Made by a program: the position numbers and the translations under genes. From NCBI GenBank assembly GCA_016782405.1, contig JADHYO010000001.1, positions 1 to 47,478 of the forward strand: 47,478 nucleotides of DNA. The letters are read 5' to 3'. The first letter of the stretch is position 1, and each line of letters opens with the position of its first letter. Source of the stretch: Candidatus Aenigmatarchaeota archaeon. Its GTDB lineage: Archaea > Aenigmatarchaeota > Aenigmatarchaeia > QMZP01. The notes under the pieces are model-generated. The model had not been told where the DNA came from, searched no databases, and saw only the letters and a list, made by a program, of their open reading frames with translations. This document shows positions 1,874 through 21,556 of the stretch, one piece after another.

Positions 1874-2176
1874 ATGCAAAAAATCTCTTGTCCCTATTGC
1901 AAGTCCAATAAAATGGTTTTCCGGGGATACCGCTACAATGAGAAGTCCAAGAAACGCCTGCGGCTCTGCAAATCCTGCGGGAGGAAGTTTACGCTCCGTA
2001 ACGTCTACTTCAGGATGCGTTTTTCCCCAGTAGAAATCAAGCGGGCAGTCTCTCTCTATAAAAAAGGATTTTCTCTAGCAGAAGCGAAGCTTCGCATGGA
2101 AAGAGAAGGAGTCAGGGTCTCTCGCTGGACAATCCTCAAATGGTACAAAAAATACACCAAACCCGAGGACCGCTAA
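1874..2176 (+). CDS. Small Zn-ribbon + HTH DNA-binding protein (IS1 InsA / transposase N-terminal-like architecture, no catalytic domain)
   Basis: 100 aa. CPYC..(22 aa)..CKSC zinc ribbon, then an HTH-like segment GFSLAEAKLRMEREGVRVSRWTILKWYKKY. Confidence 0.6.
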   Translation: MQKISCPYCKSNKMVFRGYRYNEKSKKRLRLCKSCGRKFTLRNVYFRMRFSPVEIKRAVSLYKKGFSLAEAKLRMEREGVRVSRWTILKWYKKYTKPEDR

Positions 2177-2215
2177 GTTGACAAAACAAAAACCCTCCGA
2201 AACCTGGCGATAAAC
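2170..2215 (+). repeat. Intergenic repeat family, copy 1 (overlaps the stop codon of 1874..2176)
   Basis: CCGCTAAGTTGACAAAACAAAAAC (2170-2193) matches the reverse complement of 18584-18607 at 23/24 nt. The core TAAGTTGACAAAACAAAAAC matches 7805-7823 at about 17/20 with one indel. Downstream CGAAACC is shared with copy 3. Confidence 0.7.
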
Positions 2216-3330
2216 AACTAAAACTCGGGCAATGTCCTTTTCCCCGCCCCCCAAAACACACAGCTTATTTGGCCATGTGCCTTGGGTTGTTGTCTACCCC
2301 TATAACCTAAAAACAAAAGTTCGTCGCATTCAACCATCGATTGCGGAGGGATATTTTTTGGAGCGTGGACTGGGCATGAGTGAAGAGTGATGTTTGGAAA
2401 ACTCTTTGTGAAAATGCATTTGCAGTCTACCCTCACAGAAGATAATCCTTTATTATCAATTTTACACGATCTGCCGGCCCGCACATCATTTGCAACAGAA
2501 AAAAAGGGGGAGAAAGAATCCAAATTCGAATAATAAACCGAAGCTTCATCCCCCTCCCCATCTATCAAGAACCTTCTACCTCTGTTGCGAACAAAAAACC
2601 TTTCCACCTCTTCCTTGTGTGTGGGGGGTTTTACCTCCTCGTTGTCTGTCGGCCCCTACTACTTACACCGACTCTGCGGTTGTGAAAACCACTACCATCA
2701 CTACGGCGAGAACGTCCTTTCTCCTCTTTCACCTCTGCCGTTGCTTCTCGTAGCTTTTTGTCGTCTTGCTGCGGTGGTGTGGTAGTTCTCACTCGTCGCT
2801 TCCCCATATGGGAACCCCCTATCCGATCCTCCCTTGGAAAAAATAGCCATGAGCAGTCGGGAGGACAAAACTGCCTAGGCTTAGAATAGCAACCCCTCTC
2901 CACTGAAGGGGTGCATAATATAATGCGATGTATAAAAACGGTGGGGAAGGTGTCTAATGATTAAAGCGGTTAAGTGTGTCGCAGCCAGCATGGCTGCTAG
3001 GTGGGGTATGTATAGGTGGGAAAGACACCTCCCCAACCAAATCTTGAATTCACGTTTCTAAGAAGTTCACTAGCCCCGCGCGCGGCGTTGCATACTATGA
3101 TGCACCGGGAGGGGTGGGTTGTTAGGAATCCCTGGCCGCCGCGCGCACTGTCAGACAGAATGATCGGAATGTAGTTGGTTGGGGAGACACTGTTGAATGT
3201 ACTCGAATAACTATTCCAATCAATACAGTCTTCCACCCCCCGCAGTCTCTTCCCACCTATTGTCGACTGCGATTCCACCCCACACCACCCGAGGCGAAAA
3301 GGGCATTGGTGAAAAAACTAAAACAACATC

Positions 3331-3420
3331 CTGACCCCGAGAGCAGGCCGAAAGCTTCTAAGCTCCGGGTGGAACCTGCTCACCTACAAATCAGCCTTGA
3401 AAGATTTGTAGTGGGGTCAG
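3331..3420 (+). ncRNA. Three-helix RNA module, copy R1
   Basis: P1 CTGACCCC/GGGGTCAG (3331-3338/3413-3420), P2 GAGCAGG/CCTGCTC (3341-3347/3375-3381), P3 CTACAAATC/GATTTGTAG (3384-3392/3403-3411). Paralog of 3660-3750. Confidence 0.5.
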
Positions 3421-3659
3421 GGCTCTGCCCAGTGACAGTTAAAAAATTAATTCAGCTCCAACCGCAAGGCGCGCAGAGAATGATTGCTCGCTGGAAATGG
3501 CTGGGTATTTCCAACTAGGATGAGGCCAGGTCCAGTCAAACCTGCGCGCCTTTCGCTCATGTGCCGGTGCCATATAGAGAGGTTGTAGCCCGAGAGAAAT
3601 TACCGGCACATCTTCAGCCTTCAACAAGGAAGCGCTCTTACGAGCGTTGCGTTGGGCCT

Positions 3660-3750
3660 CTGACTCCAAGAGCAGGCCGAAAGCTTCTAATCTCTCGGAT
3701 GTGTCCTGCTCACCTGCAAGCCGAGTTCGAAAAACTTGCAGTGGGGTCAC
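3660..3750 (+). ncRNA. Three-helix RNA module, copy R2
   Basis: Same architecture as R1. P1 GACTCC/GGGGTC has a U.G pair only on the + strand. P2 is identical (3670-3676/3705-3711). P3 is rebuilt with different sequence, CTGCAAG/CTTGCAG. The 21-nt block GAGCAGGCCGAAAGCTTCTAA is identical to R1. Confidence 0.5.
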
Positions 3751-3908
3751 AGACAGATGATGGTGGGTGATTGGCAGTGTGATTATCACCCGATCGTCAG
3801 AGTGTTCCAAAAGTCGGAGGGTTCCAGTGTGTATTCAAAAAGCCCCGGGTGGGGATGCGAATAGCTTGATCGGTGTCCAGACCATGTCAAGCGACTCGGG
3901 GCTGGGTT

Positions 3909-4236
3909 AAAATCAAACGATGGGGCGGGCAAAACAGTAACACAATTTTACCTCGACAGTGGTCACTCTCGTAGGTTATAATTGATTCATCATGCCCGCC
4001 CCGCAAAAATCAATGGGTGGCGGGTAAAGTAAAACCTCTCATTCAGGCTACGGTCAAATAGCCACATATCATTTGTTCTGGTGATGCAATACCCGCCACG
4101 CAAAATTCAACTGGGTAAGCGCTTCCATGGTAGGATCTAGTAGATAGACAAGACAACATCAGGAAGGCACTTACCCAGAAAAGACAATCAAGTCACCTGA
4201 TTCCTTGAGGAAAGTCTTTGAAGCTTTCCTGAGGAA
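3909..4236. repeat. Tandem array of 3-4 long hairpins separated by A-rich spacers (period about 90-96 nt)
   Basis: H1 3922-4002 (GGGGCGGGCA/TGCCCGCCCC), H2 4017-4099 (GTGGCGGGTA/TACCCGCCAC), H3 4111-4178 (CTGGGTAAG/CTTACCCAG), weaker H4 4201-4236. Spacers are AAAATCAAAC, AAAAATCAAT, AAAATTCAA and AAAAGACAATCAAG. Confidence 0.6.
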
Positions 4237-4321
4237 GAAACCATCTGCTAACAAAAAGTTTGGTTCCCTGTGGGCATTCCGAAGGAATGTCGTGCAAATG
4301 GTTTGTGAAATTGATGAAACA

Positions 4322-6316
4322 TTACTTGAAGTCAACCCGCTCAAAGTCTGCTTTCTTTGCGAACTTTTCTGGGCTGGCTATATAGACGGTTAGGGGACCT
4401 TGTTTGTATGAAAGCCTAGCGGCTTCCTGCAGAAGGACGTTCCTCACACCCTCTGTCGCGCATATGAAGTATGGGGTTTCCCTCAAACCCTCTTCTATTT
4501 TTTTTCGGTTTGTTGTGTTTTCGATGATTACAGTAAGCTTTTTATTGTTCTGCTTATATATAAGCCTTTTTCCCTCTTGATCAAACTCCCAGCCCACCCC
4601 AGTGAGGTTAGAAACAATCTCTGTTATGTCCTTGTTTGATGATGTTTCCTTCCTGGTGAAATTCTCATCAAACACCTGATCCCCATTATCTGTGAGGAAA
4701 TAGAAGTGCAGTACATTCCTTCCAGTCTTCCCGCGCTTCATACCGACCAGGCCTTGGTCAGCCAGTTTTTTAACATGCCGCTCGAATGTTTTGCCTGACA
4801 TCTTTGTTCTGGAATAAATCCTTGAAGCAAAGCTACCTTTCCCTGATCCAATTGCCTCGATAATCTTCATCCCTTGCTCACTGATTTCCTCCTGAACATG
4901 CTCCTCTGCTACTGATTCTTTCTTGCCTGAGACCTTTTCCACAATCCGGTTGCCCATGAACTTGCTGATTTCCTCATCTGTAACGATTCCCTTTTCCATT
5001 GGGAACTTTGGGAACTCAATAAGGAATGGGCTCTGGAGCGACATCCTGCAAAGTATGAAACCGTGCCCAATAGGTAGTTGCCTGAGGTAAGGGGTTTCCT
5101 CCTCTGAGAGGCCAAGCATGTTGCTGGCGTCCTGGACATCTGAGGATTGCTTTGTGTCCAGTCCAAGGTTCATGTATATATGGGTTGATGTGTTTCCCAG
5201 GGCTGGGTAAGAAACCAATGAGGGGTGCTGGTCCAGATAGATCATGCCAAGCCCAAGCTCCCTAACCTCACGGAATATCAGCTCCATCACAGTTTCAGAT
5301 CCCATTTTCTTTGCCTTATCGCGGTTGAGGACGTGATGCGCTTCTTCCAGGAAAACCACACCTGCGAGCTCTTCCTTTTTCCAGTTAACAAGCAGCCAGT
5401 CCCTTATCCACTGGAGGATGATTTCTATGAAAAAAGACTTGTCATTTGTGTCAAGTGCGTCCAGCTCCAGGATGGTTATTTTTCCTGGCCTGAAAAAATC
5501 TGATGGAAGGATACCATCCTTTACCTTAAAGACCTCTCCCACCTCTTTGAAACAGAGGCTCTCTAAAGGTCGCTCGGCAGTAGCGAGCCAGTTCCGCTCC
5601 CTTGTCGGGAGGTTTGCAGAACCATACTCGTTCAGCCACTCCTTGAGATCTTGGAGGGTGGGATTCTCATGTGACATATAAACATTGTCCATTGACTTCA
5701 AAATTATATGACGGCCACCGCCAAGCAACCAGTAGGCATGGTCAAAGATTGAAGCAAACTCCTTAATCCACTGTGACAATTGGATCCCTGGTGGGGGCTT
5801 CAATGGGTTGAATTTGAACGGGGAAACGTTTCTGCCTATGGTGAAGATTTCTATCCTGTCTCTTAACGGGGTGGAGATAAGGTCTTTATAATTTCTTTTG
5901 GAGAAGTCAAAAATAATTACAGGGATTCCCTGGTCTGACAGCTTCTCTATCAATGAATAAGCAAGGTTGGTTTTCCCATACCCTGAGGAGCCAAAAATCC
6001 CCATGTGTGAGAGGAACGTCTTCTTGTTCAAATAGAAGGGATGCATTCTCTTCCTTCCGTACAATGCCTTCCCAATCTCAACATCCCCTGGTTTTGGTGT
6101 TATTGCCGCCGGGGGCTCCCTCAAGGCTGCATCCCGCAAATCCGGGTCAGAGAAGACAGCTGCCTTGATAACATCAACCAGCTCAAAAATCCTTTTCTTA
6201 GTATCCTCATCAGCCAGGAGGTATGCTCTTCCCAGACGCTGTGCGTTTATTCTTCCTAGAACAGGAACCAGCCTCTTAATCTCCTCGGACACCAGCTTCT
6301 CCTGTGTGTCCATCAT
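4322..6316 (-). CDS. HerA/FtsK-superfamily (DUF87-like) P-loop ATPase fused to a C-terminal winged-helix domain plus an uncharacterised tail domain
   Basis: Walker A GIFGSSGYGKTNLA; Walker B-like VVFLEEAHHVL. C-terminal wHTH-like segment FASRIYSRTKMSGKTFERHVKKLADQGLVGMKRGKTGRNV. Start moved to the ATG at 6316: ATGA overlap with the upstream stop, and GGAGG lies 4-5 nt upstream. The listed 6427 start would overlap the upstream gene by 115 nt. Confidence 0.75.
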   Translation of the reverse strand: MMDTQEKLVSEEIKRLVPVLGRINAQRLGRAYLLADEDTKKRIFELVDVIKAAVFSDPDLRDAALREPPAAITPKPGDVEIGKALYGRKRMHPFYLNKKTFLSHMGIFGSSGYGKTNLAYSLIEKLSDQGIPVIIFDFSKRNYKDLISTPLRDRIEIFTIGRNVSPFKFNPLKPPPGIQLSQWIKEFASIFDHAYWLLGGGRHIILKSMDNVYMSHENPTLQDLKEWLNEYGSANLPTRERNWLATAERPLESLCFKEVGEVFKVKDGILPSDFFRPGKITILELDALDTNDKSFFIEIILQWIRDWLLVNWKKEELAGVVFLEEAHHVLNRDKAKKMGSETVMELIFREVRELGLGMIYLDQHPSLVSYPALGNTSTHIYMNLGLDTKQSSDVQDASNMLGLSEEETPYLRQLPIGHGFILCRMSLQSPFLIEFPKFPMEKGIVTDEEISKFMGNRIVEKVSGKKESVAEEHVQEEISEQGMKIIEAIGSGKGSFASRIYSRTKMSGKTFERHVKKLADQGLVGMKRGKTGRNVLHFYFLTDNGDQVFDENFTRKETSSNKDITEIVSNLTGVGWEFDQEGKRLIYKQNNKKLTVIIENTTNRKKIEEGLRETPYFICATEGVRNVLLQEAARLSYKQGPLTVYIASPEKFAKKADFERVDFK

Positions 6317-6891: not shown

Positions 6892-7056
6892 ACCCGCTCC
6901 TGTTTCCCCAGGAAAGTCATAGGGGAACCACGAAAGTCATTCCTAAGACTTTCGTTATATACTTGGGCTTCCTGTTAATAAAGGCCTCTTCACGAGGGGG
7001 TCCTCTGGATCGCGACTCGGGCATTTAGGCACCGTTAAGATGACAAAATAAAAGCC

Positions 7057-7107
7057 GATGCGCACTGAAAATTTAATTTCTGGTGCGCATCTGACGCTTC
7101 TTTTTTT
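7057..7107 (+). terminator. Hairpin followed by a T7 tract (intrinsic-terminator-like, + orientation)
   Basis: GATGCGCAC (7057-7065) pairs with GTGCGCATC (7083-7091), followed by TGACGCTTCTTTTTTT. Confidence 0.3.
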
Positions 7108-7804
7108 AATGGGGTGGTATTGCCCCTGGGATTTCAGAAAACCCCTGTTTTTTCGGCTGATGCAGAACTAATACAACAACTACGGAGGGATGAGAAGTCG
7201 GGTCATGAGTTTACCCCTTCAAATCAGAACGGGGGCGGAGATACTGACACCCGTAGATTCGATAGAACGCGTCGTATCTACTTGATGCTGTCCTCCTGGT
7301 GGTTTTTGCTGTCTACATTCTTCAGGACGCACTCTTTTCTTGTGCGCTTGCGGACGAATTGGTCGTCATGCGCAGCCATATGGGGGGTCCCTTTCTGGCA
7401 GTTACTGCCATCATGGGGGTTTCGTCCTGTCCCTTACCAATAGGACACACTCTGGCAATCAAGGATGGGTAAGGCACCCATATCATCAGCCCGTGTCGTG
7501 AGCTTTGGGTTCAAAACAAACCAGGAGCTGTGCCGCTAATACAGCTCCTGGCTGTCCCAGGAGAACGAAAGCCTCCCGGTTCCCGATCCCGTCTAAGTCA
7601 GACCATTGATTGGTCAAAGTCTTAGTGTATTTCAGATTCGGTAAAAATATAGCTGACAATATCCTGGGTTCTGATTTAGAATCGGGTTTACGATTCTGGG
7701 AAAAAAATTGAGTTGGAAAAACATGACATGTGTATATTTGGTCTCTGGATTTTAAATAAGTGCTTTACAAAGAATTTTCATAATTCCAAATACCTAAGCA
7801 TCTT

Positions 7805-7852
7805 TAAGGTGACAAAGAAAAACACAGGCGGCAAAAATCCTAAATGGACATT
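7805..7852 (+). repeat. Intergenic repeat family, copy 2
   Basis: TAAGGTGACAAAGAAAAACACAGGCGGCAAAAATCC aligns with the reverse complement of 18570-18604 (CTAAGTTGACAGAACAAAAACACAGGCAGCGAAACCC) at roughly three quarters identity with one indel. Same orientation as copy 1. Confidence 0.6.
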
Positions 7853-7871
7853 GTCGCCTGCGTGCAGGACC

Positions 7872-10229
7872 TTACTCGCCCACGAACTCTCCGTTTTCAA
7901 CGCTCCAGTCGTTGCCGAAGAATCCAGCGAACTTGACATTGCCATTTTCTTTGTCCAGCATACTGATATCAGCTATCACCAGGTCCGGATACCCGATCCC
8001 TGCTGTGAATATTGGAAACATTCCAGCCATCCTCATTCCCTTGGCTGTTGTGCCGGAAACAACCCCCACAAGGGATGTATCGCATCCAGGTTTTGGCCTC
8101 ACTAACAAGACAGCCAAGTCACCCGTTAACTCTCGTTTGTTTCTAACCTTTACAGTGGAGCCCACCTGCACAGGGCTTCCTCCAAGAAGCCCTTCCCAGG
8201 CAGAGTTGGTTCTGGAATTCCCGTAGAGGATGATGTTGCCATACCCTGGCTTGTACTCCTCGTCTGGGATGAGGGGGAAGTTTCCATTCCCATGGTAGAA
8301 GAAGGTTTCCTGGTGGAATCTGGCAGCTTCGAAGTTTGCCTTGCTCTCCTCATCAGAACCCTGAGTCCCATACACAAGGACAGCCTCGTTGGTAAATGCC
8401 TCCTTGAATGGGCCTGTCCGGAGTGATGATTTCTCAGACTGGGGCGGTCTCCCGGGTGACCATTTTCCACCCTTTTTGCGGAACCATGCTTTGCCAGACA
8501 CCTCAAAGGATTGTTTGTCCAGTCGGACAGTCCCGATGGCATCTACCCAGAGGGCTTGGACATTAGTTGTCGTGACCCGTGCACTGTCCCCGTCCTTGGA
8601 GGCTGTTACCTTGCTCCTTTTATGGAACTTTTTCTGCTGTTCAATCCCAACCCAGTGACACTGGGAGGAAACCCCAGGGTTTGCTGTGGTGAAGCTGATC
8701 TTCTCACCGGTTCCAATTTGTTGCTTCCTGAGGAACTTGAACATCTGTGGCCAGTTAACACATGCCATGAAAGGAATGCCATCCCTTTTCCACCGGTGGG
8801 ATGCGCCTTTCTCTTCGTGGTATTTGAGGTTAGGGTGACCCTTCAGGAGTTTCACCGCCCTCCTTGACCAGTGCACACGGACTGTTCTGTCAAGTTGCCC
8901 GTGGAGAACGTAGACAGGTGTTTTTGAGAGGTTCCCCATCCACAGCTGTTTTATCCTGCTTTGAGAGCAAGACCTCCAGAGGATTTCTCCTGTGCGGGAG
9001 GATCGAAAATTCAGTTTCGGTTCTTCAAGGTCCCAAATGGAGAGGTACCCACCCGAGGGTCCGCCCGCAGCAAACATTCCAGGATACCATGCCATGAATG
9101 CCCAGGCCCCGTGGCCGCCCATACCAAGTCCGCAGATATAAATCTTTTTCGGGTCATGGGGGAGCTGCCTCTTGGCATCTTCCAGGGCCTCGAGGACATC
9201 CAGTCGTCCCCAGTCCTCATAACTGAAACCAATGGGCCTCCTATTCATGGGTGCCACAATGTGACACCATTTCTTTCTGGGAAGCATGTCGCAGATGTCC
9301 TTTGTACCCCGGCCAGAATCGTGACATGCAACCAGGATTCCTGCCCCCTCCGGGTTCTTGGCTGGGGTGATCCTGTAACTTTGGATACTCCCATCCACTG
9401 AGCTTCTGAAGGTCTTCCTTATCACAACCCTCTTTGCTTTGGGGTTCACCACCTCCAGGGGAACCTCAAGTGAATCCAGCACCTCCTCACTGTTTTTTAA
9501 TTCCAGGTGAAGTGTTGCCTTATTCGAGGCCGGGGCCTTGATCCGGAAGGATGCCCTGGAAATGGAATGCTCGTGGATTGGGTGGATGCTGGTCTCCACC
9601 TCCCTGTCACCAACACGGGCAAGAATCTTCAATCCAGTGAGCCTATCACCAGCATTAATGATATCAACCCCGCCCCAGCCACTATATTTGCGGCCAGATA
9701 TGAGGGATGGTAGGGTTGGTTCCCACTTGGATTTGTTCACGAAGCTGAGGGACACTTCCTTCTCCACGGGCTTCAACGTTGCTTTGAACCCATTCCCTTT
9801 TCGCACAAGGAAAAGGAGGTGGTTCGTTCCCTCCTTGAGCTTTACAGGGATTGGTACTCTCCCCTCATCAGAGACACCGTAATGCGGGTTTCCCATCCTG
9901 GGCGTCCCGTTCACAAACACATGGGAGTGGCCGCCGGCCTCCAGTATCATCACCTTTTCCTGGTCAGAGTCAACTTCGAAGTGGAGGTAGCAGTCTACTC
10001 TGAACTTTTCCCCCTTCCTGATTTCTATAGGCCCCCATTCTGCACTGCCTATATCAAGCAATTTCTCATCCTTAAACAGTTTACCCTGAAGGAGACTGTG
10101 TTCCACAAGGTCCATCCGAATCTGGTTGAGGTCCTTGTAAACTCCTGCAATCGCTTCCCCTTCTACTAGGGGAATGTCTTGGCTGCTGGAAACGCCACAT
10201 AGCAGCGCCAATAAAACAATGATTCCCAT
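7872..10229 (-). CDS. Secreted multidomain protein with an alpha/beta-hydrolase (esterase/peptidase S9-like) domain; nucleophile Ser appears replaced by Gly
   Basis: Signal-like N-terminus MGIIVLLALLCGVSSSQ. Hydrolase-like region KKIYICGLGMGGHGAWAFMAWYPGMFAAGG ... PVYVLHGQLDRTV ... GASHRW. Confidence 0.65.
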   Translation of the reverse strand: MGIIVLLALLCGVSSSQDIPLVEGEAIAGVYKDLNQIRMDLVEHSLLQGKLFKDEKLLDIGSAEWGPIEIRKGEKFRVDCYLHFEVDSDQEKVMILEAGGHSHVFVNGTPRMGNPHYGVSDEGRVPIPVKLKEGTNHLLFLVRKGNGFKATLKPVEKEVSLSFVNKSKWEPTLPSLISGRKYSGWGGVDIINAGDRLTGLKILARVGDREVETSIHPIHEHSISRASFRIKAPASNKATLHLELKNSEEVLDSLEVPLEVVNPKAKRVVIRKTFRSSVDGSIQSYRITPAKNPEGAGILVACHDSGRGTKDICDMLPRKKWCHIVAPMNRRPIGFSYEDWGRLDVLEALEDAKRQLPHDPKKIYICGLGMGGHGAWAFMAWYPGMFAAGGPSGGYLSIWDLEEPKLNFRSSRTGEILWRSCSQSRIKQLWMGNLSKTPVYVLHGQLDRTVRVHWSRRAVKLLKGHPNLKYHEEKGASHRWKRDGIPFMACVNWPQMFKFLRKQQIGTGEKISFTTANPGVSSQCHWVGIEQQKKFHKRSKVTASKDGDSARVTTTNVQALWVDAIGTVRLDKQSFEVSGKAWFRKKGGKWSPGRPPQSEKSSLRTGPFKEAFTNEAVLVYGTQGSDEESKANFEAARFHQETFFYHGNGNFPLIPDEEYKPGYGNIILYGNSRTNSAWEGLLGGSPVQVGSTVKVRNKRELTGDLAVLLVRPKPGCDTSLVGVVSGTTAKGMRMAGMFPIFTAGIGYPDLVIADISMLDKENGNVKFAGFFGNDWSVENGEFVGE

Positions 10230-10518: not shown

Positions 10519-11148
10519 ATGGCGTTCAAGGGTCTAAAGAAATTACTGGACAGGATTTCATCGCTTTTCAAGAAGAAGGGCGAGTTGAAGATTGGGCTTT
10601 ACGGGCCAGTGAACTCTGGAAAGACCACCCTAGCGAACAAGATATGCAAGGACTGGCTTGGGGAGGACATGGGAAAAGCTTCCATAGTTCCACATGAAAC
10701 AAGGGAAATTCAAACAAAGGAGAATGTTAAGATAGAACGTGACGGCAAATCCCTAACGTTCAACCTGGTGGACACCCCTGGGATTGCAACAAGGATTGAT
10801 TTTGAGGATTTTGTAAAGTTCGGGATGGGGAAGAAGAAAGCCAAATCCCGAGCTAAAGAGGCCACCAAAGGCGTTATTGAATCAATCAAGTGGTTGGACA
10901 ACATGGACATGGTGTTGGTAGTGGTTGACTCAACAAGAGACCCGCTCACCCAGGTGAACCTTACAATCCTTGGAAACCTTGATGCTAGAGGGGTTCCTTT
11001 TCTGATTGTGGCAAACAAGGCAGATCTCAAGCAGTCCCAGCTGAAGCGTGTGGAAGAAGCATTCCAGAATTATAGGACAGTTGGGATTTCAGCGAGGACA
11101 GGTCACCGGCTTGAGAATCTATATGACGCAGTACTGGAGACAGTATGA
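10519..11148 (+). CDS. Small GTP-binding protein (Era/EngB-like TRAFAC GTPase)
   Basis: G1 GPVNSGKTT, G3 DTPG, G4 NKAD. Confidence 0.8.
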   Translation: MAFKGLKKLLDRISSLFKKKGELKIGLYGPVNSGKTTLANKICKDWLGEDMGKASIVPHETREIQTKENVKIERDGKSLTFNLVDTPGIATRIDFEDFVKFGMGKKKAKSRAKEATKGVIESIKWLDNMDMVLVVVDSTRDPLTQVNLTILGNLDARGVPFLIVANKADLKQSQLKRVEEAFQNYRTVGISARTGHRLENLYDAVLETV

Positions 11149-11483
11149 TAAAGATAAAGTTCATCCCATATGAAATTGTCAGGGACGATTTCAAGAAGGT
11201 AATGCGCGCCCTCCAGAGGGAGGCCTTGGTTCTAATTGACGCGAAGCTGAATCCTGAGGAAGAAGCAGATTTGATTAAAAATACAATGGAGAAGTTCTCT
11301 GAGCAGTTCACTGGGATAGAACTTTCAAGCATTGAGGCACCAGAGCTTGGCAATGTTGATAAGTTCAAGAACCTGCTTGTGGAGCGGTTAACCGGGAAGA
11401 AGAGGGGCTTCACAATTATCGGCCCTGCAGGGATTGTTAGAAAAATCAAGAAGAATCCCCAGGAGCTTCTTGTTTACATGTGA
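11145..11483 (+). CDS. Small conserved archaeal protein co-transcribed with the GTPase (DUF2073-like by recollection)
   Basis: 112 aa. ATGA start/stop overlap with the GTPase gene. Confidence 0.55.
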   Translation: MIKIKFIPYEIVRDDFKKVMRALQREALVLIDAKLNPEEEADLIKNTMEKFSEQFTGIELSSIEAPELGNVDKFKNLLVERLTGKKRGFTIIGPAGIVRKIKKNPQELLVYM

Positions 11484-11521
11484 ACACATATAAATATAAA
11501 CCAGGACAGCAAAAACTTCTC

Positions 11522-11986
11522 ATGGAGATCCGAAAAGCCACAGCAGGGGATTTAGAGCAGCTGGCTCTTCTGAACCAAAATCTTGTTTTAGAGCACGTTG
11601 AAATTGACAATTATTATTCAACAGTTGACAATGCTGACTCCCTGTGGAGGGAGGACATAGAAAAACACCTGAATGATCCGGAGAGCGGTTTGTTTGTGGC
11701 TGAAGAAAACAAAAAGATAATCGGATATATCATGGGCTCCATAAGAGAAAGATACAAAATCTTCTCTGCAAGGCGCTACGCAGAGATATGGTCATCCTTT
11801 GTGGACAAGGAATTCAGGCATCAGGGAGCAATGAAAGAGCTCTTCTCCTGCTTCAGGGAGTGGGCGAAGGAAAATGGTGTGGAGCTAATAGAGCTACACA
11901 CTGACCTTAGGAACAAGGAAGTTTTTGAGGCATGGAAATCCCTGGGCTTTGAGCACATCCGGGCTCAGATGAGAATGAGCGTGTGA
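11522..11986 (+). CDS. GNAT-family N-acetyltransferase
   Basis: MEIRKATAGDLEQL start is typical of GNATs. Acetyl-CoA-binding motif-A-like segment VDKEFRHQGAMKEL. The listed ORF begins at a GTG at 11480; the ATG at 11522 is preferred. Confidence 0.7.
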   Translation: MEIRKATAGDLEQLALLNQNLVLEHVEIDNYYSTVDNADSLWREDIEKHLNDPESGLFVAEENKKIIGYIMGSIRERYKIFSARRYAEIWSSFVDKEFRHQGAMKELFSCFREWAKENGVELIELHTDLRNKEVFEAWKSLGFEHIRAQMRMSV

Positions 11987-12029
11987 TTTCTCAGCTCAAT
12001 AATAAAAACCTACAGTAACAGAATAAAGT

Positions 12030-12416
12030 ATGCCCAATAAATGCACCCAGTGCGGGACTATCCATCCTGATACAGCAGACTATCTGCTGAAAGGCTGCAA
12101 TGAATGTGGTTCTCGTTTTTTCTTTTACGTGAAGGAAGAGGCGCTCCAGCAGCTTGAGAGGGAAGTTGAGAAGCTAACCACAACAGAAATCAAGGAAATA
12201 GAAGAGGATGTCCGCGAAATCACTGGGGAGGAAGAAGAAACTGTTATCCTGGACTTGGAGGCTATACGAGTCCTCAGGCCAGGGAAGTATGCAATTGATG
12301 TTACAAACCTTTTCAAGCAAAGACCGCTTGTAATCCGAACAGCTGAGGGCAAATACAAGCTCGACCTTTCAACAATTTCTTTCAGAAAAAAAGGCAAAAA
12401 GAAGAAGGAAGAATAA
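12030..12416 (+). CDS. Zn-ribbon protein (archaeal DUF2072-like) with an acidic central region and a lysine-rich tail
   Basis: CTQCG..(14 aa)..CNECG zinc ribbon at the N-terminus. Confidence 0.65.
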   Translation: MPNKCTQCGTIHPDTADYLLKGCNECGSRFFFYVKEEALQQLEREVEKLTTTEIKEIEEDVREITGEEEETVILDLEAIRVLRPGKYAIDVTNLFKQRPLVIRTAEGKYKLDLSTISFRKKGKKKKEE

Positions 12417-15344: not shown

Positions 15345-15698
15345 ATGGAAGAGGTTGCCAAATGGGTTGAAAAGGCAGAGCATGACCTAAATGCTGCTGA
15401 AGTTAACCTAAAAGAAGGTATATATGATGTATCTGCATTCTTTTCACAACAGGCTGCAGAAAAGTCGTTGAAGGCATTATATATATCGAAATATAAAGAA
15501 TTGTGGAAGATTCATGACCTATACGAATTGGCAATTAAGGTTGAAGCTCCAAAAACCATTTCTGACATTTGTGAGAAGTTGACACAGCATTATATAGCCA
15601 CAATGTATCCGAACGATGAAGAATATTCCAAGGAAGATGCAGAGGAGGCGGTTGAACAGGCAAAGAAGGTGATGAAATGGGTAAAAGAGAAATTATAG
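15345..15698 (+). CDS. HEPN-domain protein (partner of the adjacent minimal nucleotidyltransferase)
   Basis: WVEKAEHDLNAAE..FFSQQAAEKSLKAL..HYIATMYP pattern of classical HEPN (COG2250-like) proteins. Overlaps the next gene by 22 nt. Confidence 0.7.
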   Translation: MEEVAKWVEKAEHDLNAAEVNLKEGIYDVSAFFSQQAAEKSLKALYISKYKELWKIHDLYELAIKVEAPKTISDICEKLTQHYIATMYPNDEEYSKEDAEEAVEQAKKVMKWVKEKL

Positions 15699-18641: not shown

Positions 18642-19241
18642 TCAGCCAGCTTTGGTTAAAGAGTGAATTTTCCTCTTTATTTTTTTGTGGCCCCTGACCC
18701 CTGATGTTTTTCTAATGTAAAGAGCCAGCTTTTTTTTGTTCAGGCTTCCTGCCATAGCTTTCCAAATGTCGTCAAGGAATGGATAATTGAAATAAATCAT
18801 GTCTATCAAGGTCTTTTCCAGGTCAGATACCCTCACGCTCTCACCATCCACCTTCATGGTTTCATACCCGAAGTACATTTTTCTTGAAACCCTGCGGACA
18901 ATCACTTTCCTTTCTCCAACGATTCTCTCCCCAACTTTGATTTTTTTCGGTGCCTTGGTAGTGAGTACATTTACATTCGGAATTTGGTCCCAGAAACCGT
19001 GCAGAAATGCCGCTGTCCCCAGGCCAATATACGCCTCTCCAAGGGGGACTGTTATTAAGTAAGGGGTTTCCTTGAAGGAATACCACCCCTTAATTAATGG
19101 GATTATTTTCCCCTTTTCCCTGAGCCTGTGGATAAAGACTTTGGCATACCCATTGCCCATTTCACCCTGGACCGTTTTCAGGCTGAAAACACTGGCTTTC
19201 TCCAGTTTTTCCTGGAATTTTTTGTATTTAACCCTTGGCAT
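18642..19241 (-). CDS. AbiEi-like antitoxin / wHTH transcriptional regulator
   Basis: GWYSF..YIGLGTAAFLHGFWDQIP..VSDLEKTLIDMIY pattern typical of AbiEi/COG5340 proteins. 14-nt overlap with the AbiEii-like gene. Confidence 0.65.
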   Translation of the reverse strand: MPRVKYKKFQEKLEKASVFSLKTVQGEMGNGYAKVFIHRLREKGKIIPLIKGWYSFKETPYLITVPLGEAYIGLGTAAFLHGFWDQIPNVNVLTTKAPKKIKVGERIVGERKVIVRRVSRKMYFGYETMKVDGESVRVSDLEKTLIDMIYFNYPFLDDIWKAMAGSLNKKKLALYIRKTSGVRGHKKIKRKIHSLTKAG

Positions 19242-19848
19242 ACATGTACACCTTCCTCTTTATTGTTTCAAAGTCAGGGCATTTTCCCATCAGAATGATT
19301 TCCTTAAGACCTGCAAAATCCCTTGGAACCTTGATAGGTTTTAATCCCTTCAGGTGAATATCCGCTTTGTCAAGAAGGAAGAATATGTCATACAAATCCC
19401 TTGCTTTTTTTCTCCCCTTAAAAGCATCAATCTTCTCCTGGATTAGATCCCTGGCTGACAGTGTTCCTATAATCAGGGAGTCGCCACCCACCATAAAAAA
19501 CTCACCATCAACAGGGCTGACCTTCCTGAACATTGGCGAAACCTCAACCTCAACCTCTGCCACACCATCACTGAATTTCATATAAACAACATCAGATCCA
19601 GTCACCTTCCCTTTAAGCATGGTGAAGTCTGACTTTTTGAAATGTTCCAGGATTTCTTTTGGCTTGCTGAAATAAAGGTCCAAATCATATGAGAACCTTT
19701 TCCCACCATAAACCCTCCAGATTGCTGTCCCACCATGCAGCACAACATCAAACTTCGAGAGAAGTTCAACTATCAGTTTGTCCTGGAGCTCTGCTATCTT
19801 GAGGAGCTTCCCTTTCAACAGCTTGTTAAGTGGAAATTTGGTGTCCAT
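19228..19848 (-). CDS. AbiEii/AbiGii-family nucleotidyltransferase toxin
   Basis: LHGGTAIWRVYGGKRFSYDLDLYF (GGTA..R.S.DlD motif). Start taken at the ATG at 19848 (MDTKFPLNKLL). Confidence 0.7.
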   Translation of the reverse strand: MDTKFPLNKLLKGKLLKIAELQDKLIVELLSKFDVVLHGGTAIWRVYGGKRFSYDLDLYFSKPKEILEHFKKSDFTMLKGKVTGSDVVYMKFSDGVAEVEVEVSPMFRKVSPVDGEFFMVGGDSLIIGTLSARDLIQEKIDAFKGRKKARDLYDIFFLLDKADIHLKGLKPIKVPRDFAGLKEIILMGKCPDFETIKRKVYMYAKG

Positions 19849-19959
19849 AGTATTATATATACCCAGGTTATATAAAAACATAACCCTCGTATAAAAAGCG
19901 TTCAAGTGTAGCAGAAGGGGCAGAGCGGATTGATGGAAAACTTAAAGTCTCAGTGGTTT

Positions 19960-21482: not shown

Positions 21483-21556
21483 AGCCTCTGAAGGGAATCG
21501 AACCCCTAACCTTTCGTTTACGAAACGAATGCTCTACCAGATTGAGCTACAGAGGC
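21483..21556 (-). tRNA. tRNA-Thr(CGU), intronless
   Basis: Minus-strand reading: GCCTCTG TA GCTC AATCTGGTA GAGC A TTCGT TTCGTAA ACGAA AGGTT AGGGG TTCGATT CCCTT CAGAGGC T (74 nt). Confidence 0.85.

Follow-up and report, generated by a model that had tools for sequence, protein, structure and literature searches.

The 2145-nt spacer at positions 2177-4321 of the 47,478-nt window, a piece of an Aenigmatarchaeota (DPANN) chromosome, is non-coding and contains perfect local helices far above chance. It holds a fixed genomic slot across Aenigmatarchaeota, from a HerA-like ATPase operon to an IS1-like zinc-ribbon gene. Units within the spacer multiply through local duplication, and the duplicated units retain their stems via double compensatory changes as their other parts drift. 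We tentatively favor the reading, held at somewhat less than even confidence, that the spacer is an island of several small-to-medium, lineage-specific, fast-evolving structured noncoding RNA genes that turn over by local duplication. The members of this island would include three-way-junction modules, long hairpins, and one nested domain of ~250 nt, and their helices would act as RNA. Such RNAs could be regulators or protein partners, for example via CU-rich or U-rich single-stranded parts, rather than one ribozyme-like machine. At present, our findings are not sufficient to announce a new giant structured RNA.

A hairpin-dense spacer in a conserved gene neighborhood

Two convergent genes enclose the spacer: a gene for a 100-aa zinc-ribbon and HTH protein at 1874-2176 (+), which lies beside the spacer in relatives too, and a gene for a HerA/DUF87-type ATPase with a C-terminal winged-helix region at 4322-6316 (-), which is the anchor of the conserved synteny. 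The zinc-ribbon protein weakly resembles the N-terminal DNA-binding part of IS1/IS6/IS1595 transposases (sub-threshold NCBIfam matches). Mis-assembly is excluded given that the spacer sequence is identical across three public datasets; other contigs of the same strain are also 100% identical to it, and contig L016, which covers 2477-4321 of the spacer, has no gene called downstream of HerA. The DNA comes from samples SRR12042682, ERR13325269, and ERZ24794676, and a 1054-nt contig from ERR13325269 spans 3175-4228. An earlier note on this DNA had described about 2.1 kb without a credible ORF, which was confirmed via codon-usage analysis. The log-odds of every stop-free spacer segment lay between -0.27 and +0.08, compared to 0.00 +/- 0.13 for spurious ORFs and 0.11 to 0.49 for 34 real genes, all of them above the spacer. 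A Pfam scan of the five ORFs internal to the spacer gave no match, and the three longest stop-free segments had no homologue except themselves in sets of 5.8 billion and 1.84 billion proteins. The note's remark that gaps elsewhere are short is nearly true of the window, where the remaining gaps are at most 300 nt, except for a second ORF-free stretch of 980 nt at 6892-7871. We found no sign of a string of pseudogenes, which the note had also considered: six-frame blastp between spacers recovered only the zinc-ribbon gene, tblastn with 134 proteins encoded at this position in other relatives gave no match, and no in-frame similarity emerged from the translated segments.

The description of the region as packed with helices was borne out. 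Perfect stems of at least 9 bp with loops of up to 200 nt number 9 in the spacer, compared to 1.26 +/- 1.18 expected from 200 dinucleotide shuffles (0/200 reach 9), and stems of at least 10 bp number 6, compared to 0.41 expected. Perfect local inverted repeats are ~7-fold enriched, and the spacer tops the 22 equal-sized blocks of the window in perfect stems. All eight helices listed in the note are Watson-Crick paired; seven are exact, and the eighth (2491-2498/2582-2589) pairs at 7 of 8 positions and becomes complete after a shift of 1 nt. The mean folding z in 120-nt windows was -1.2 in the spacer on both strands and -0.26 and -0.14 outside it (Mann-Whitney p ~1e-4). Single units reached z values of -3.8 to -5.4, and whole domains had modest values of -1.6 to -1.9. 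The stems are mostly perfect Watson-Crick pairs and fold equally well on either strand. The GC content of the spacer is 48.9%, compared to 45.5% for the window, with a 100-nt minimum of 38%; a recount of 3061-3120 returned the same 37/60 G+C as the note. A pyrimidine-rich tract at 2550-2830 (66% C+T on the + strand) has CCUCC-like motifs, and similar C/T-rich tracts occur in the spacers of relatives.

The same slot was recovered by tblastn at 11 distinct loci, where the zinc-ribbon gene lies 1.25 to 2.55 kb beyond HerA (0.56 kb in one). At each locus, the HerA-like ATPase gene and the ~100-aa IS1-like zinc-ribbon gene flank an ORF-poor spacer, and a six-frame comparison of the seven closest relatives identified no conserved ORF between the two. 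The relatives' spacers were enriched in hairpins at six of the eight loci tested (L017 and L025 were not), and three further related loci also have long perfect stems. Five of eight spacers are GC-richer than the rest of their locus, the opposite of ordinary intergenic DNA. The closest HerA homologue in the 5.8-billion protein set is at most 77% identical, with the top nine at 69 to 78% pairwise, and the spacers are unalignable even at a HerA identity of 70 to 77%. In all-against-all blastn and nhmmer comparisons of the spacers, alignment was confined to the zinc-ribbon gene and to the ~200 nt that directly follow HerA, and gene order past the zinc-ribbon gene varies among relatives. The motif AAGACTTTCC (HerA sense) lies 100-180 nt past the HerA stop in relatives and occurs again before the operon at 6912-6953, and a partly palindromic GAAAGTC/GACTTTC motif is present at both ends of the HerA operon. 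A CCGAAAG...CCGGGTGG motif common to the window and L001 was found in these two loci only and was judged a coincidence. We considered L060/L064 and L103-105 from a metagenome scan as close pairs for covariation analysis; they have a surface-protein gene at the site instead of the spacer. No unit of the spacer is conserved in relatives, and thus cross-species covariation is absent. Searches of the literature found no description of this HerA, spacer, and zinc-ribbon locus.

Duplicated units and comparison with known RNA classes

About ten candidate units can be distinguished in the spacer. One is a nested-helix domain at 3012-3260, built from helices at 3012-3022/3250-3260 (11 bp), 3029-3040/3175-3186 (12 bp), and 3078-3087/3137-3146 (10 bp, all G/C); a hairpin at 2940-3038 with 16-nt arms that are 88% complementary competes with the 12-bp helix for 3029-3038. 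Further hairpins lie at 2489-2591 (11-nt arms, 91% complementary), 3463-3555 (14-nt arms, 93% complementary, folding z -2.6), 3559-3611 (perfect 10-bp stem), and 3841-3903 (perfect 7-bp stem directly beside an A5 run, which the minus strand reads as T5). Three tandem units with a period of ~97 nt follow: h1 at 3922-4002, a perfect 10-bp G/C-rich stem around 61 nt; h2 at 4014-4102, with 13-nt arms that are 92% complementary around 63 nt; and h3 at 4111-4178, with 19-nt arms that are 79% complementary and a folding z of -5.4. The loops of h1 and h2 are unrelated, and the linker CCCGCCMCGCAAAAWTCAA is common to both. A small hairpin with GGAAAGTCTT is located at 4196-4236; this is the AAGACTTTCC motif (HerA sense) described above for relatives.

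A ~93-nt three-way-junction module is present in two copies. Copy 1 at 3331-3423 has a P1 of 8 bp, a P2 of 7 + 3 bp, and a P3 of 9 bp, with folding z values of -3.8 (+) and -3.9 (-), and copy 2 at 3660-3755, which lies 329-330 nt downstream, is 79% identical and shares an identical 21-mer. Relative to copy 1, copy 2 has two double compensatory changes in P3, and one C-G pair of P1 has become U.G. Two double compensatory changes also separate the stems of h1 and h2, and two modules of the relative L024 differ by four, bringing the total to eight; the first 41 loop nt of the L024 modules are 95% identical. Across the paralogue stems, 92 to 100% of cells are paired, compared to 31 to 55% with the partners slid, in tests that each involve two sequences and have weak shuffle controls (34/500, 118/500, and 133/500). 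The pairing signal was gone in nearly every register when the partner was shifted by 1-3 columns. Local duplications are present in several spacers, including those of L024 and L017. The three tandem hairpins aligned too poorly to serve as the basis for a second covariance model, and the model built from the 93-nt module (R1) matched only the two window copies when searched against the 11 related loci. Neither the 47-kb window nor 0.7 Mb of sequence from related loci yielded a further copy of any unit, so that across these sequences the units are not dispersed palindromic repeats of the MITE or REP type.

The earlier note could not match the region to a known RNA class, and our searches agree. 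Rfam 15 at gathering thresholds, with families for rRNA, RNase P, SRP RNA, tmRNA, riboswitches, self-cleaving ribozymes, group I/II introns, OLE/GOLLD/ROOL, and archaeal sRNAs in scope, returned no family in the spacer, and its sole match in the window was a tRNA at 21483-21556. At E<=10, the spacer gave chance-level C/D snoRNA-like matches only (best 24 bits, compared to a threshold of 43 bits), and the spacers of five to six relatives gave nothing even at E<=5. ARAGORN predicted no tRNA in the spacer. We looked for archaeal box C/D sRNAs as RUGAUGA and CUGA by a terminal stem, with internal D'/C' boxes and guides of ~12 nt; the minus strand of h1 has AUGAUGA by the stem, but its 3' side reads CUGU-UUU and D'/C' boxes are not correctly spaced. 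For archaeal H/ACA sRNAs, we looked for a 9- to 10-bp lower stem, a pseudouridylation pocket, an upper stem with a K-turn or K-loop, and ACA 3' of each hairpin. The tandem hairpins are followed by GCAAAA or GAAAAG rather than ACA, no tandem G.A K-turn was seen by eye in their upper parts, and there was no Rfam H/ACA match. Hammerhead and other three-way-junction ribozymes were also rejected, given that the module joints consist of GA/AA, AC, and U only, in which the core CUGANGA ... GAAA ... UH is missing, and that no Rfam ribozyme matched. The conserved module core, searched as an exact or degenerate DNA pattern, had 12 matches in genome contigs, all in GC-rich bacteria and judged to be chance, and none in viral or metagenome contigs. 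Searches of the spacer by blastn against phage and plasmid collections and of viral contigs for the HerA protein found no match, PADLOC defense-system models returned only generic HerA and HTH matches, and short stretches of complementarity between the spacer and the rest of the window were at chance level.

Strand preference and competing readings of the spacer

The evidence leans toward the minus strand for the units. The earlier note took the imperfect positions of the helices to favor the + strand, which was not supported: G.U counts at helix imperfections have no strand bias, and the folding energies of single elements go either way (they sum to -549 kcal/mol for the + strand and -538.5 for the minus strand). 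Oligo-T tracts are termination signals in archaea. The minus strand has 12 tracts of T5 or longer, compared to 2.2 expected (0/500 shuffles), and these delimit units of about 90-370 nt; among them are the tracts at 3312-3317, 3441-3446, 3837-3841, and 4005-4009. On the minus strand, a tract of T4 or longer comes within 20 nt after four of the seven outermost perfect stems, whereas on the plus strand none of the seven has one. By eye, some unit starts have an AT-rich box ~30 nt away that resembles the TTTAAAWA promoter box of this genome, e.g., at 3441-3453. Among relatives, L017 has the opposite asymmetry in oligo-T tracts, and L021 and L023 have none. From the oligo-U tracts after hairpins on the minus strand, we infer that most units are probably read from it, in the HerA sense.

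Helix enrichment, the shared slot, the pairing of paralogues, and the minus-strand T tracts count for a set of several RNAs. The perfect, strand-neutral stems count against an RNA reading, since DNA palindromes or young mutational hairpins look alike, and so do the failure to find any unit conserved in a relative, the unshared T asymmetry, the two unenriched relatives (L017 and L025), and the modest z values of whole domains. We consider it very unlikely that the spacer encodes one large structured RNA of 1.5-2 kb on the + strand, as the earlier note had proposed. An archaeal polymerase could run through 2760-4321, where the + strand has no tract of T5 or longer, and the A-rich linkers and positive + strand AT skew over 2900-4300, together with the long-range nested helices at 3012-3260, would suit such a transcript. 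However, about one T5 tract is expected in 1.5 kb from base composition, so that finding none is not unusual; the + strand has no folding-energy advantage, and a + strand transcript would enter HerA antisense. The content of the spacer is modular, with duplicated local units, and, in contrast to all known large structured RNAs, no core, junction, or loop was found to be conserved in any relative. The unalignable syntenic spacers argue against a single conserved large RNA, as do the restriction of the module model to two copies, the domain z values, and the 12 minus-strand oligo-T tracts, and a stable slot with unconserved sequence makes a cluster of small-RNA genes likelier; the note's own alternative of a cluster of several RNAs thus fits better. 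Hidden small, fast-evolving protein genes, such as one that encodes a small basic peptide at ~2630-2810 of the minus strand, are highly improbable. Lys/Arg-rich ORFs of a similar kind have been called in L017 and L021, gene callers place ORFs of 80-190 aa in some relatives' spacers, and several ORFs start with M-K/R-rich stretches by eye, but codon usage is non-coding-like in all window segments, the three longest lack homologues, the spacers have no protein-level similarity to each other, and the candidate peptide would cover less than 10% of the spacer.

We also considered that the spacer could act as DNA, which we regard as unlikely. Its inverted repeats and short motifs would then matter as palindromes, cruciforms, or ssDNA hairpins, giving the DNA-handling proteins on either side (the HerA/FtsK-type winged-helix ATPase and the IS1-like zinc-ribbon-HTH protein) a platform for binding or structure, or would mark a replication or segregation site. 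The perfect, strand-neutral stems, the constant linkage to two putative DNA-binding proteins, and the GAAAGTC/GACTTTC motif at both HerA operon ends fit this possibility. Archaeal replication origins have several inverted ORB or mini-ORB repeats around an AT-rich unwinding element beside orc1/cdc6. The spacer resembles them as a long intergenic region with inverted repeats and fast sequence evolution, and the "origin-associated" oapA/B/C genes lie 6 kb away. It differs in having no AT-rich unwinding element (its GC minimum is given above), a GC content above the genome average, no Orc1/Cdc6 domain adjacent or elsewhere among the 33 window ORFs scanned with Pfam, and mini-ORB-like patterns only as scattered single near-matches, with no 8-mer common to all spacers and no other repeated motif shared within or between them. 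OapA is now linked to vesicle formation rather than replication (PMC10927574), which counts against an origin. A DNA-level role would also leave the GC enrichment unexplained, and arms 30-230 nt apart are atypical for dimeric DNA binders. It is likewise improbable, in our judgment, that the spacer is neutral, fast-turnover DNA at a synteny breakpoint, with unselected hairpins and duplications arising from template switching, slippage, or decayed palindromic mini-elements. The lack of any sequence conservation among relatives, stems that are perfect, seemingly young, and without strand bias, the local duplications in several spacers, the differing gene order past the zinc-ribbon gene, and the two relatives without hairpin enrichment are what neutral turnover would leave. 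Against it, many lineages with small, dense genomes retain a spacer of over 1.2 kb at this slot, in a window where all other gaps but one are at most 300 nt, and the spacers tend to exceed coding DNA in GC. No unit of the spacer recurs outside it in the window or across 700 kb from related loci, which does not fit dispersed MITE-like repeats, and the 41-nt loop of the L024 modules, 95% identical despite four compensated stem pairs, looks selected. A broader proposal, which we offer as little better than a long shot, treats the hypervariable hairpin spacer, together with the HerA-like operon and the IS1-like zinc-ribbon gene, as a single functional unit specific to Aenigmatarchaeota. A locus fixed in position would then keep producing new structured RNAs (or ssDNA hairpins) through duplication and divergence, and the flanking nucleic-acid-handling proteins would use these as guides, scaffolds, or substrates.

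Place among known systems and significance

Intergenic sRNA genes have been mapped in Haloferax and Methanosarcina. They have also been mapped in Pyrococcus abyssi (PMC3124441). Like the spacer units, archaeal sRNA genes are intergenic, form stable hairpins, and belong to no Rfam family; they often end in a hairpin and U-tract and are conserved only among close relatives. The spacer differs in that about ten candidate units are crowded into a single slot of 2 kb, and the slot itself persists throughout a phylum-level lineage. OLE, GOLLD, and ROOL are large ornate bacterial noncoding RNAs that were found via long GC-rich intergenic regions (PMC12286853, PMC8632094). The spacer is similarly long, ORF-free, relatively GC-rich, and rich in helices in a conserved neighborhood, but those RNAs have strongly conserved cores and helices that covary across species, whereas the spacer has no cross-species conservation and does not match their Rfam models. 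REP/BIME and MITEs are palindromic repeat elements (PMC3184786) and resemble the spacer as short elements with perfect inverted-repeat bounds in intergenic clusters, some of them tandem duplicates; in the spacer, every stem sequence is unique, copies are local only, and no target-site duplications were seen by eye. The region at 3906-4195 recalls a CRISPR array in that conserved pieces (linker and stem halves) alternate with unrelated pieces of ~50-63 nt at a period of ~97 nt. It differs in that its conserved pieces are only ~80% alike, its best pairing spans the variable pieces, it has three units, and no cas gene is among the scanned ORFs. Tandem Repeats Finder and a direct-repeat search detected no set of at least three near-identical direct repeats of 24-48 nt with unique spacers of similar length.

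The genomes of DPANN archaea are small and dense, and to our knowledge, almost nothing is known of their noncoding RNAs. Given its retained slot, its stable hairpins, and duplicated modules that keep their pairing, the spacer represents a concrete and cheap target for metatranscriptome mapping. If it is not transcribed, it would be an unusual, hairpin-prone "junk" tolerated by a streamlined genome. If the operon, spacer, and zinc-ribbon gene do form one unit, they would add an RNA-protein system of a new type, one that belongs to a DPANN symbiont. If the spacer is transcribed, it would provide the first DPANN-specific small RNA set and reveal very fast turnover of RNA genes at a fixed locus.

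Helix density and coding content of the spacer

The spacer (2177-4321) lies between convergent genes, a 100-aa zinc-ribbon gene on the plus strand (1874-2176) and a HerA/DUF87-type ATPase gene on the minus strand (4322-6316), the real start of which is the ATG at 6316, overlapping the stop of an upstream 192-aa gene. The region is real, given that same-strain contigs from three public datasets (L014, L015, L016, and L106) reproduce its sequence base for base. The helix density of the spacer is above chance. We counted nine perfect Watson-Crick stems that are 9 bp or longer and enclose loops of up to 200 nt, compared to 1.26 ± 1.18 in 200 dinucleotide shuffles, none of which reached nine, and six stems of at least 10 bp compared to 0.41 expected in such shuffles. 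The spacer ranked first in stem richness among 22 equal-sized blocks of the window, and its 120-nt sliding folding z-scores averaged -1.2 on both strands versus -0.26 and -0.14 outside it (p ≈ 1e-4), with single units at -3.8 to -5.4. The helices that an earlier note had listed from the sequence alone were all present where it placed them, except for 2491-2498/2582-2589, whose register was off by 1 nt, and its hand count of 37/60 G+C for 3061-3120 was exact; the note's observation is sound, with strong statistical support.

The spacer is also noncoding, as the earlier note had proposed in finding no credible ORF there. For all 18 stop-free segments that span 50 codons or more, log-odds from codon usage ranged from -0.27 to +0.08, matching the spurious ORFs of other parts of the window (0.00 ± 0.13) and falling short of all 34 real genes (0.11 to 0.49). 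A Pfam scan of five ORFs inside the spacer returned no domain, a gene caller made no call downstream of HerA in L016 (which covers 2477-4321), and the three longest stop-free segments had no homologue other than a self match among 5.8 billion clustered proteins or among 1.84 billion representatives. The check for a string of pseudogenes was therefore negative. The proposal of an unknown class likewise withstood a search of Rfam 15, where the sole match at gathering thresholds was a tRNA 17 kb from the spacer; at E ≤ 10, the spacer yielded only C/D snoRNA-like matches at chance level. ARAGORN found no match in the spacer, which holds no tandem-repeat or CRISPR-like array, and no similar DNA was found in phage, plasmid, viral-contig, species-representative genome, or JGI metagenome collections. 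Dispersed palindromic elements are disfavored, as no further copies were found in the window or in 0.7 Mb of related loci.

Structured units, pairing, and strand

Two direct copies of a ~93-nt three-way junction (stems P1, P2, and P3), at 3331-3423 and 3660-3755, lie 329-330 nt apart, are 79% identical, and share the 21-mer GAGCAGGCCGAAAGCTTCTAA. Three tandem long hairpins, h1 (3922-4002), h2 (4014-4102), and h3 (4111-4178), recur with a ~97-nt period and have similar G/C-rich stems, a common A-rich linker (CCCGCCMCGCAAAAWTCAA), and unrelated interiors of 50-63 nt. A nested domain of ~250 nt is closed by three perfect helices set one inside the other, with 11, 12, and 10 bp (3012-3022/3250-3260, 3029-3040/3175-3186, and 3078-3087/3137-3146). 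L106, a 1,054-nt contig from a third run (ERR13325269) that covers part of the spacer (3175-4228), stops precisely at the 3' arm of the 12-bp helix. Further hairpins occupy 2489-2591, 2940-3038, 3463-3555, 3559-3611, and 3841-3903, a small hairpin carrying GGAAAGTCTT lies at 4196-4236, and a pyrimidine-rich tract (66% C+T, plus strand) spans 2550-2830.

The databases held no closer relative than a best HerA match of 77%; pairwise HerA identity among the top nine was 69-78%, and same-strain contigs were identical. Our pairing tests used paralogues inside spacers, two sequences per test. Between the two module copies, P3 carries two double compensatory changes and P1 a single C-G to U.G change, and 94% of cells are paired. 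Between h1 and h2, a 10-bp stem carries two double changes and is 100% paired. In the related locus L024, a pair of ~85-nt hairpin modules separated by 383 nt has 41 loop nucleotides at 95% identity and an outer stem altered by four double compensatory pairs. When the 3' partner was shifted by 1-3 columns, pairing fell to 31-55% and the double changes were lost in all registers except +2 in L024; two-sequence shuffle controls were weak (34/500, 118/500, and 133/500). Together, these comparisons are suggestive of stem pairing being maintained in duplicated units.

The plus-strand preference of the earlier note did not hold up: per-element energies favored plus in 11 units and minus in 6, the sums were similar (-549 versus -538.5 kcal/mol), and there was no G.U bias. 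Tracts of at least five T numbered 12 on the minus strand, compared to 2.2 expected (0/500 shuffles), and 2 on the plus strand. Runs of at least four T within 20 nt after the outermost perfect stems occurred in 4/7 cases on minus (background, 0.22) and 0/7 on plus. Because oligo-T is an archaeal termination signal, the minus-strand pattern fits several units of ~90-370 nt that each terminate in a hairpin and U-tract. The plus strand is terminator-free from 2760 to 4321, so that a long plus-strand RNA would be possible. The oligo-T asymmetry does not extend to relatives, being reversed in L017 and missing in L021 and L023. AT-rich TTTAAAWA-like boxes stand at a suitable distance from some unit ends (e.g., 3441-3453), judged by eye and about equally readable on both strands. 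If the spacer is transcribed, the strand leans only tentatively toward minus. Many genes of the window have a TTTAAAWA-type TATA box ~30 nt before the start codon (e.g., 1874, 20883, 33804, 33855, 34936, and 41839), which suggests mostly leaderless mRNAs.

The slot in relatives and the surrounding genes

The closest homologues of the HerA-like protein carry Aenigmarchaeota/Aenigmatarchaeota names, and the source is therefore a DPANN archaeon. The window is chromosomal and encodes FtsZ, Nre, mevalonate-pathway kinases, and the oapA/arvA-oapB-oapC cluster. Relatives whose HerA is 55-77% identical keep the gene order oapABC, hypothetical gene(s), HerA, gene-poor stretch, and zinc-ribbon gene. By tblastn against all fetched loci, 11 distinct loci have the zinc-ribbon gene downstream of HerA, at distances of 2149, 2554, 1954, 1484, 2329, 1507, 1276, 1321, 1723, 1251, and 559 nt, usually without an intervening ORF of at least 150 aa; when the window was compared in six frames with seven close relatives, no conserved ORF was found there. 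Spacer GC exceeded the rest of the locus in 5/8 cases (by up to 13 points), hairpins were enriched in 6/8, and three more loci also had perfect stems of 12-14 bp. Spacers were unalignable by blastn and nhmmer except for the zinc-ribbon gene and about 200 nt adjoining HerA, and a covariance model of the module matched its own two copies only. Slot and style are conserved; sequence is not. In relatives with 46-55% HerA identity, a large surface-type protein gene occupies the position instead, and spacers showed no similarity to these proteins.

The surface-type protein of distant relatives has 560-880 aa. Between L060 (5706-8321) and L064 (5731-8364), its N-terminal half is a different domain within flanks 87-92% identical, and alignment of L103/L104 with L105 is likewise lost past the first ~400 nt. 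Local duplications also mark the spacers of relatives. L017 (10298-10548) carries a 61-nt tandem repeat and a 22-mer with CCTCCTGTTTTTTCC twice, 229 nt apart; the L024 modules (8284-8366 and 8668-8750) have CU-rich loops, with T6 after the first. Matches to tRNA of 106-114 nt in L019 (13862-13967) and L017 (17726-17839) probably contain introns.

A second long ORF-free stretch (6892-7871, 980 nt), also hairpin rich, lies on the far side of the HerA operon. Its hairpin at 7057-7091 is followed by T7 on the plus strand with no gene upstream and so may mark where a small RNA ends; another hairpin, perfect over 11 bp, occupies 7521-7551. At the matching site, relatives carry a gene of 160-200 aa, and tblastn with three of these proteins found no trace in 6892-7871. 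GAAAGTC/GACTTTC occurs at 4210-4216, 6912-6918, 6932-6938, and 6947-6953, clustering at both ends of the HerA operon. A palindrome of this type, CGAAAGTC-N8-GACTTTCG, lies just downstream of the operon's TATA-like box, and GAAGACTTTCC follows HerA in L019, L021, and L023, 100-180 nt past the stop. The motif may serve a winged-helix or HTH protein as an operator. The window also encodes, on the plus strand, a type II/IV secretion-family (archaeal pilus-type) ATPase (78-1829) interrupted by an intein that carries a LAGLIDADG homing endonuclease, and the arvA/oapA small GTPase, oapB, and oapC (10519-12416), with a GNAT acetyltransferase between oapB and oapC. In haloarchaea, the arvA/oapA-oapB-oapC cluster drives formation of RNA-carrying extracellular vesicles, tying "origin-associated" OapA to that process (PMC10927574). 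A replication origin is disfavored for the spacer, which has neither an AT-rich element nor an ORB-type repeat, and no Orc1/Cdc6 gene was found among 33 ORFs scanned. At 15345-15698 and 18642-19905 lie a gene with a HEPN domain and a candidate AbiEi/AbiEii toxin-antitoxin pair, for which the AbiEi match is subthreshold.

ALTERNATIVES

The earlier note had offered, with the class unknown, either one very large structured RNA or a cluster of several. The cluster fits better, tentatively as an island of small RNAs; a single long RNA is improbable, in that spacers cannot be aligned between relatives and the module model recovers only its own copies. Small proteins hidden in the spacer would be a distant prospect, with no support from codon usage or from six-frame comparison of spacers. 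We considered that the spacer could act as DNA, for example, as a platform to which the two flanking proteins bind. At subthreshold scores, the zinc-ribbon protein is similar to the DNA-binding N terminus of IS1/IS6/IS1595 transposases, and the GAAAGTC/GACTTTC motifs flank the HerA operon on both sides, although we regard such a role as unlikely. Neutral hairpin-prone DNA, which we doubt to a similar degree, would account for stems that are perfect and strand-neutral and for a total lack of conservation. However, 1.2-2.5 kb persists at one slot in dense genomes, and both the GC enrichment and the L024 pattern of a kept loop with a compensated stem fit neutrality poorly.

Our preferred reading, held tentatively, is that the spacer forms an island, conserved in position, of several small structured RNAs specific to the lineage. 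The analysis itself shows a noncoding, helix-enriched spacer at a conserved position, with duplicated units and compensated stems, whereas transcription, its strand, and any function are what we infer. Its units would turn over by local duplication followed by divergence, with stems kept through compensatory change.
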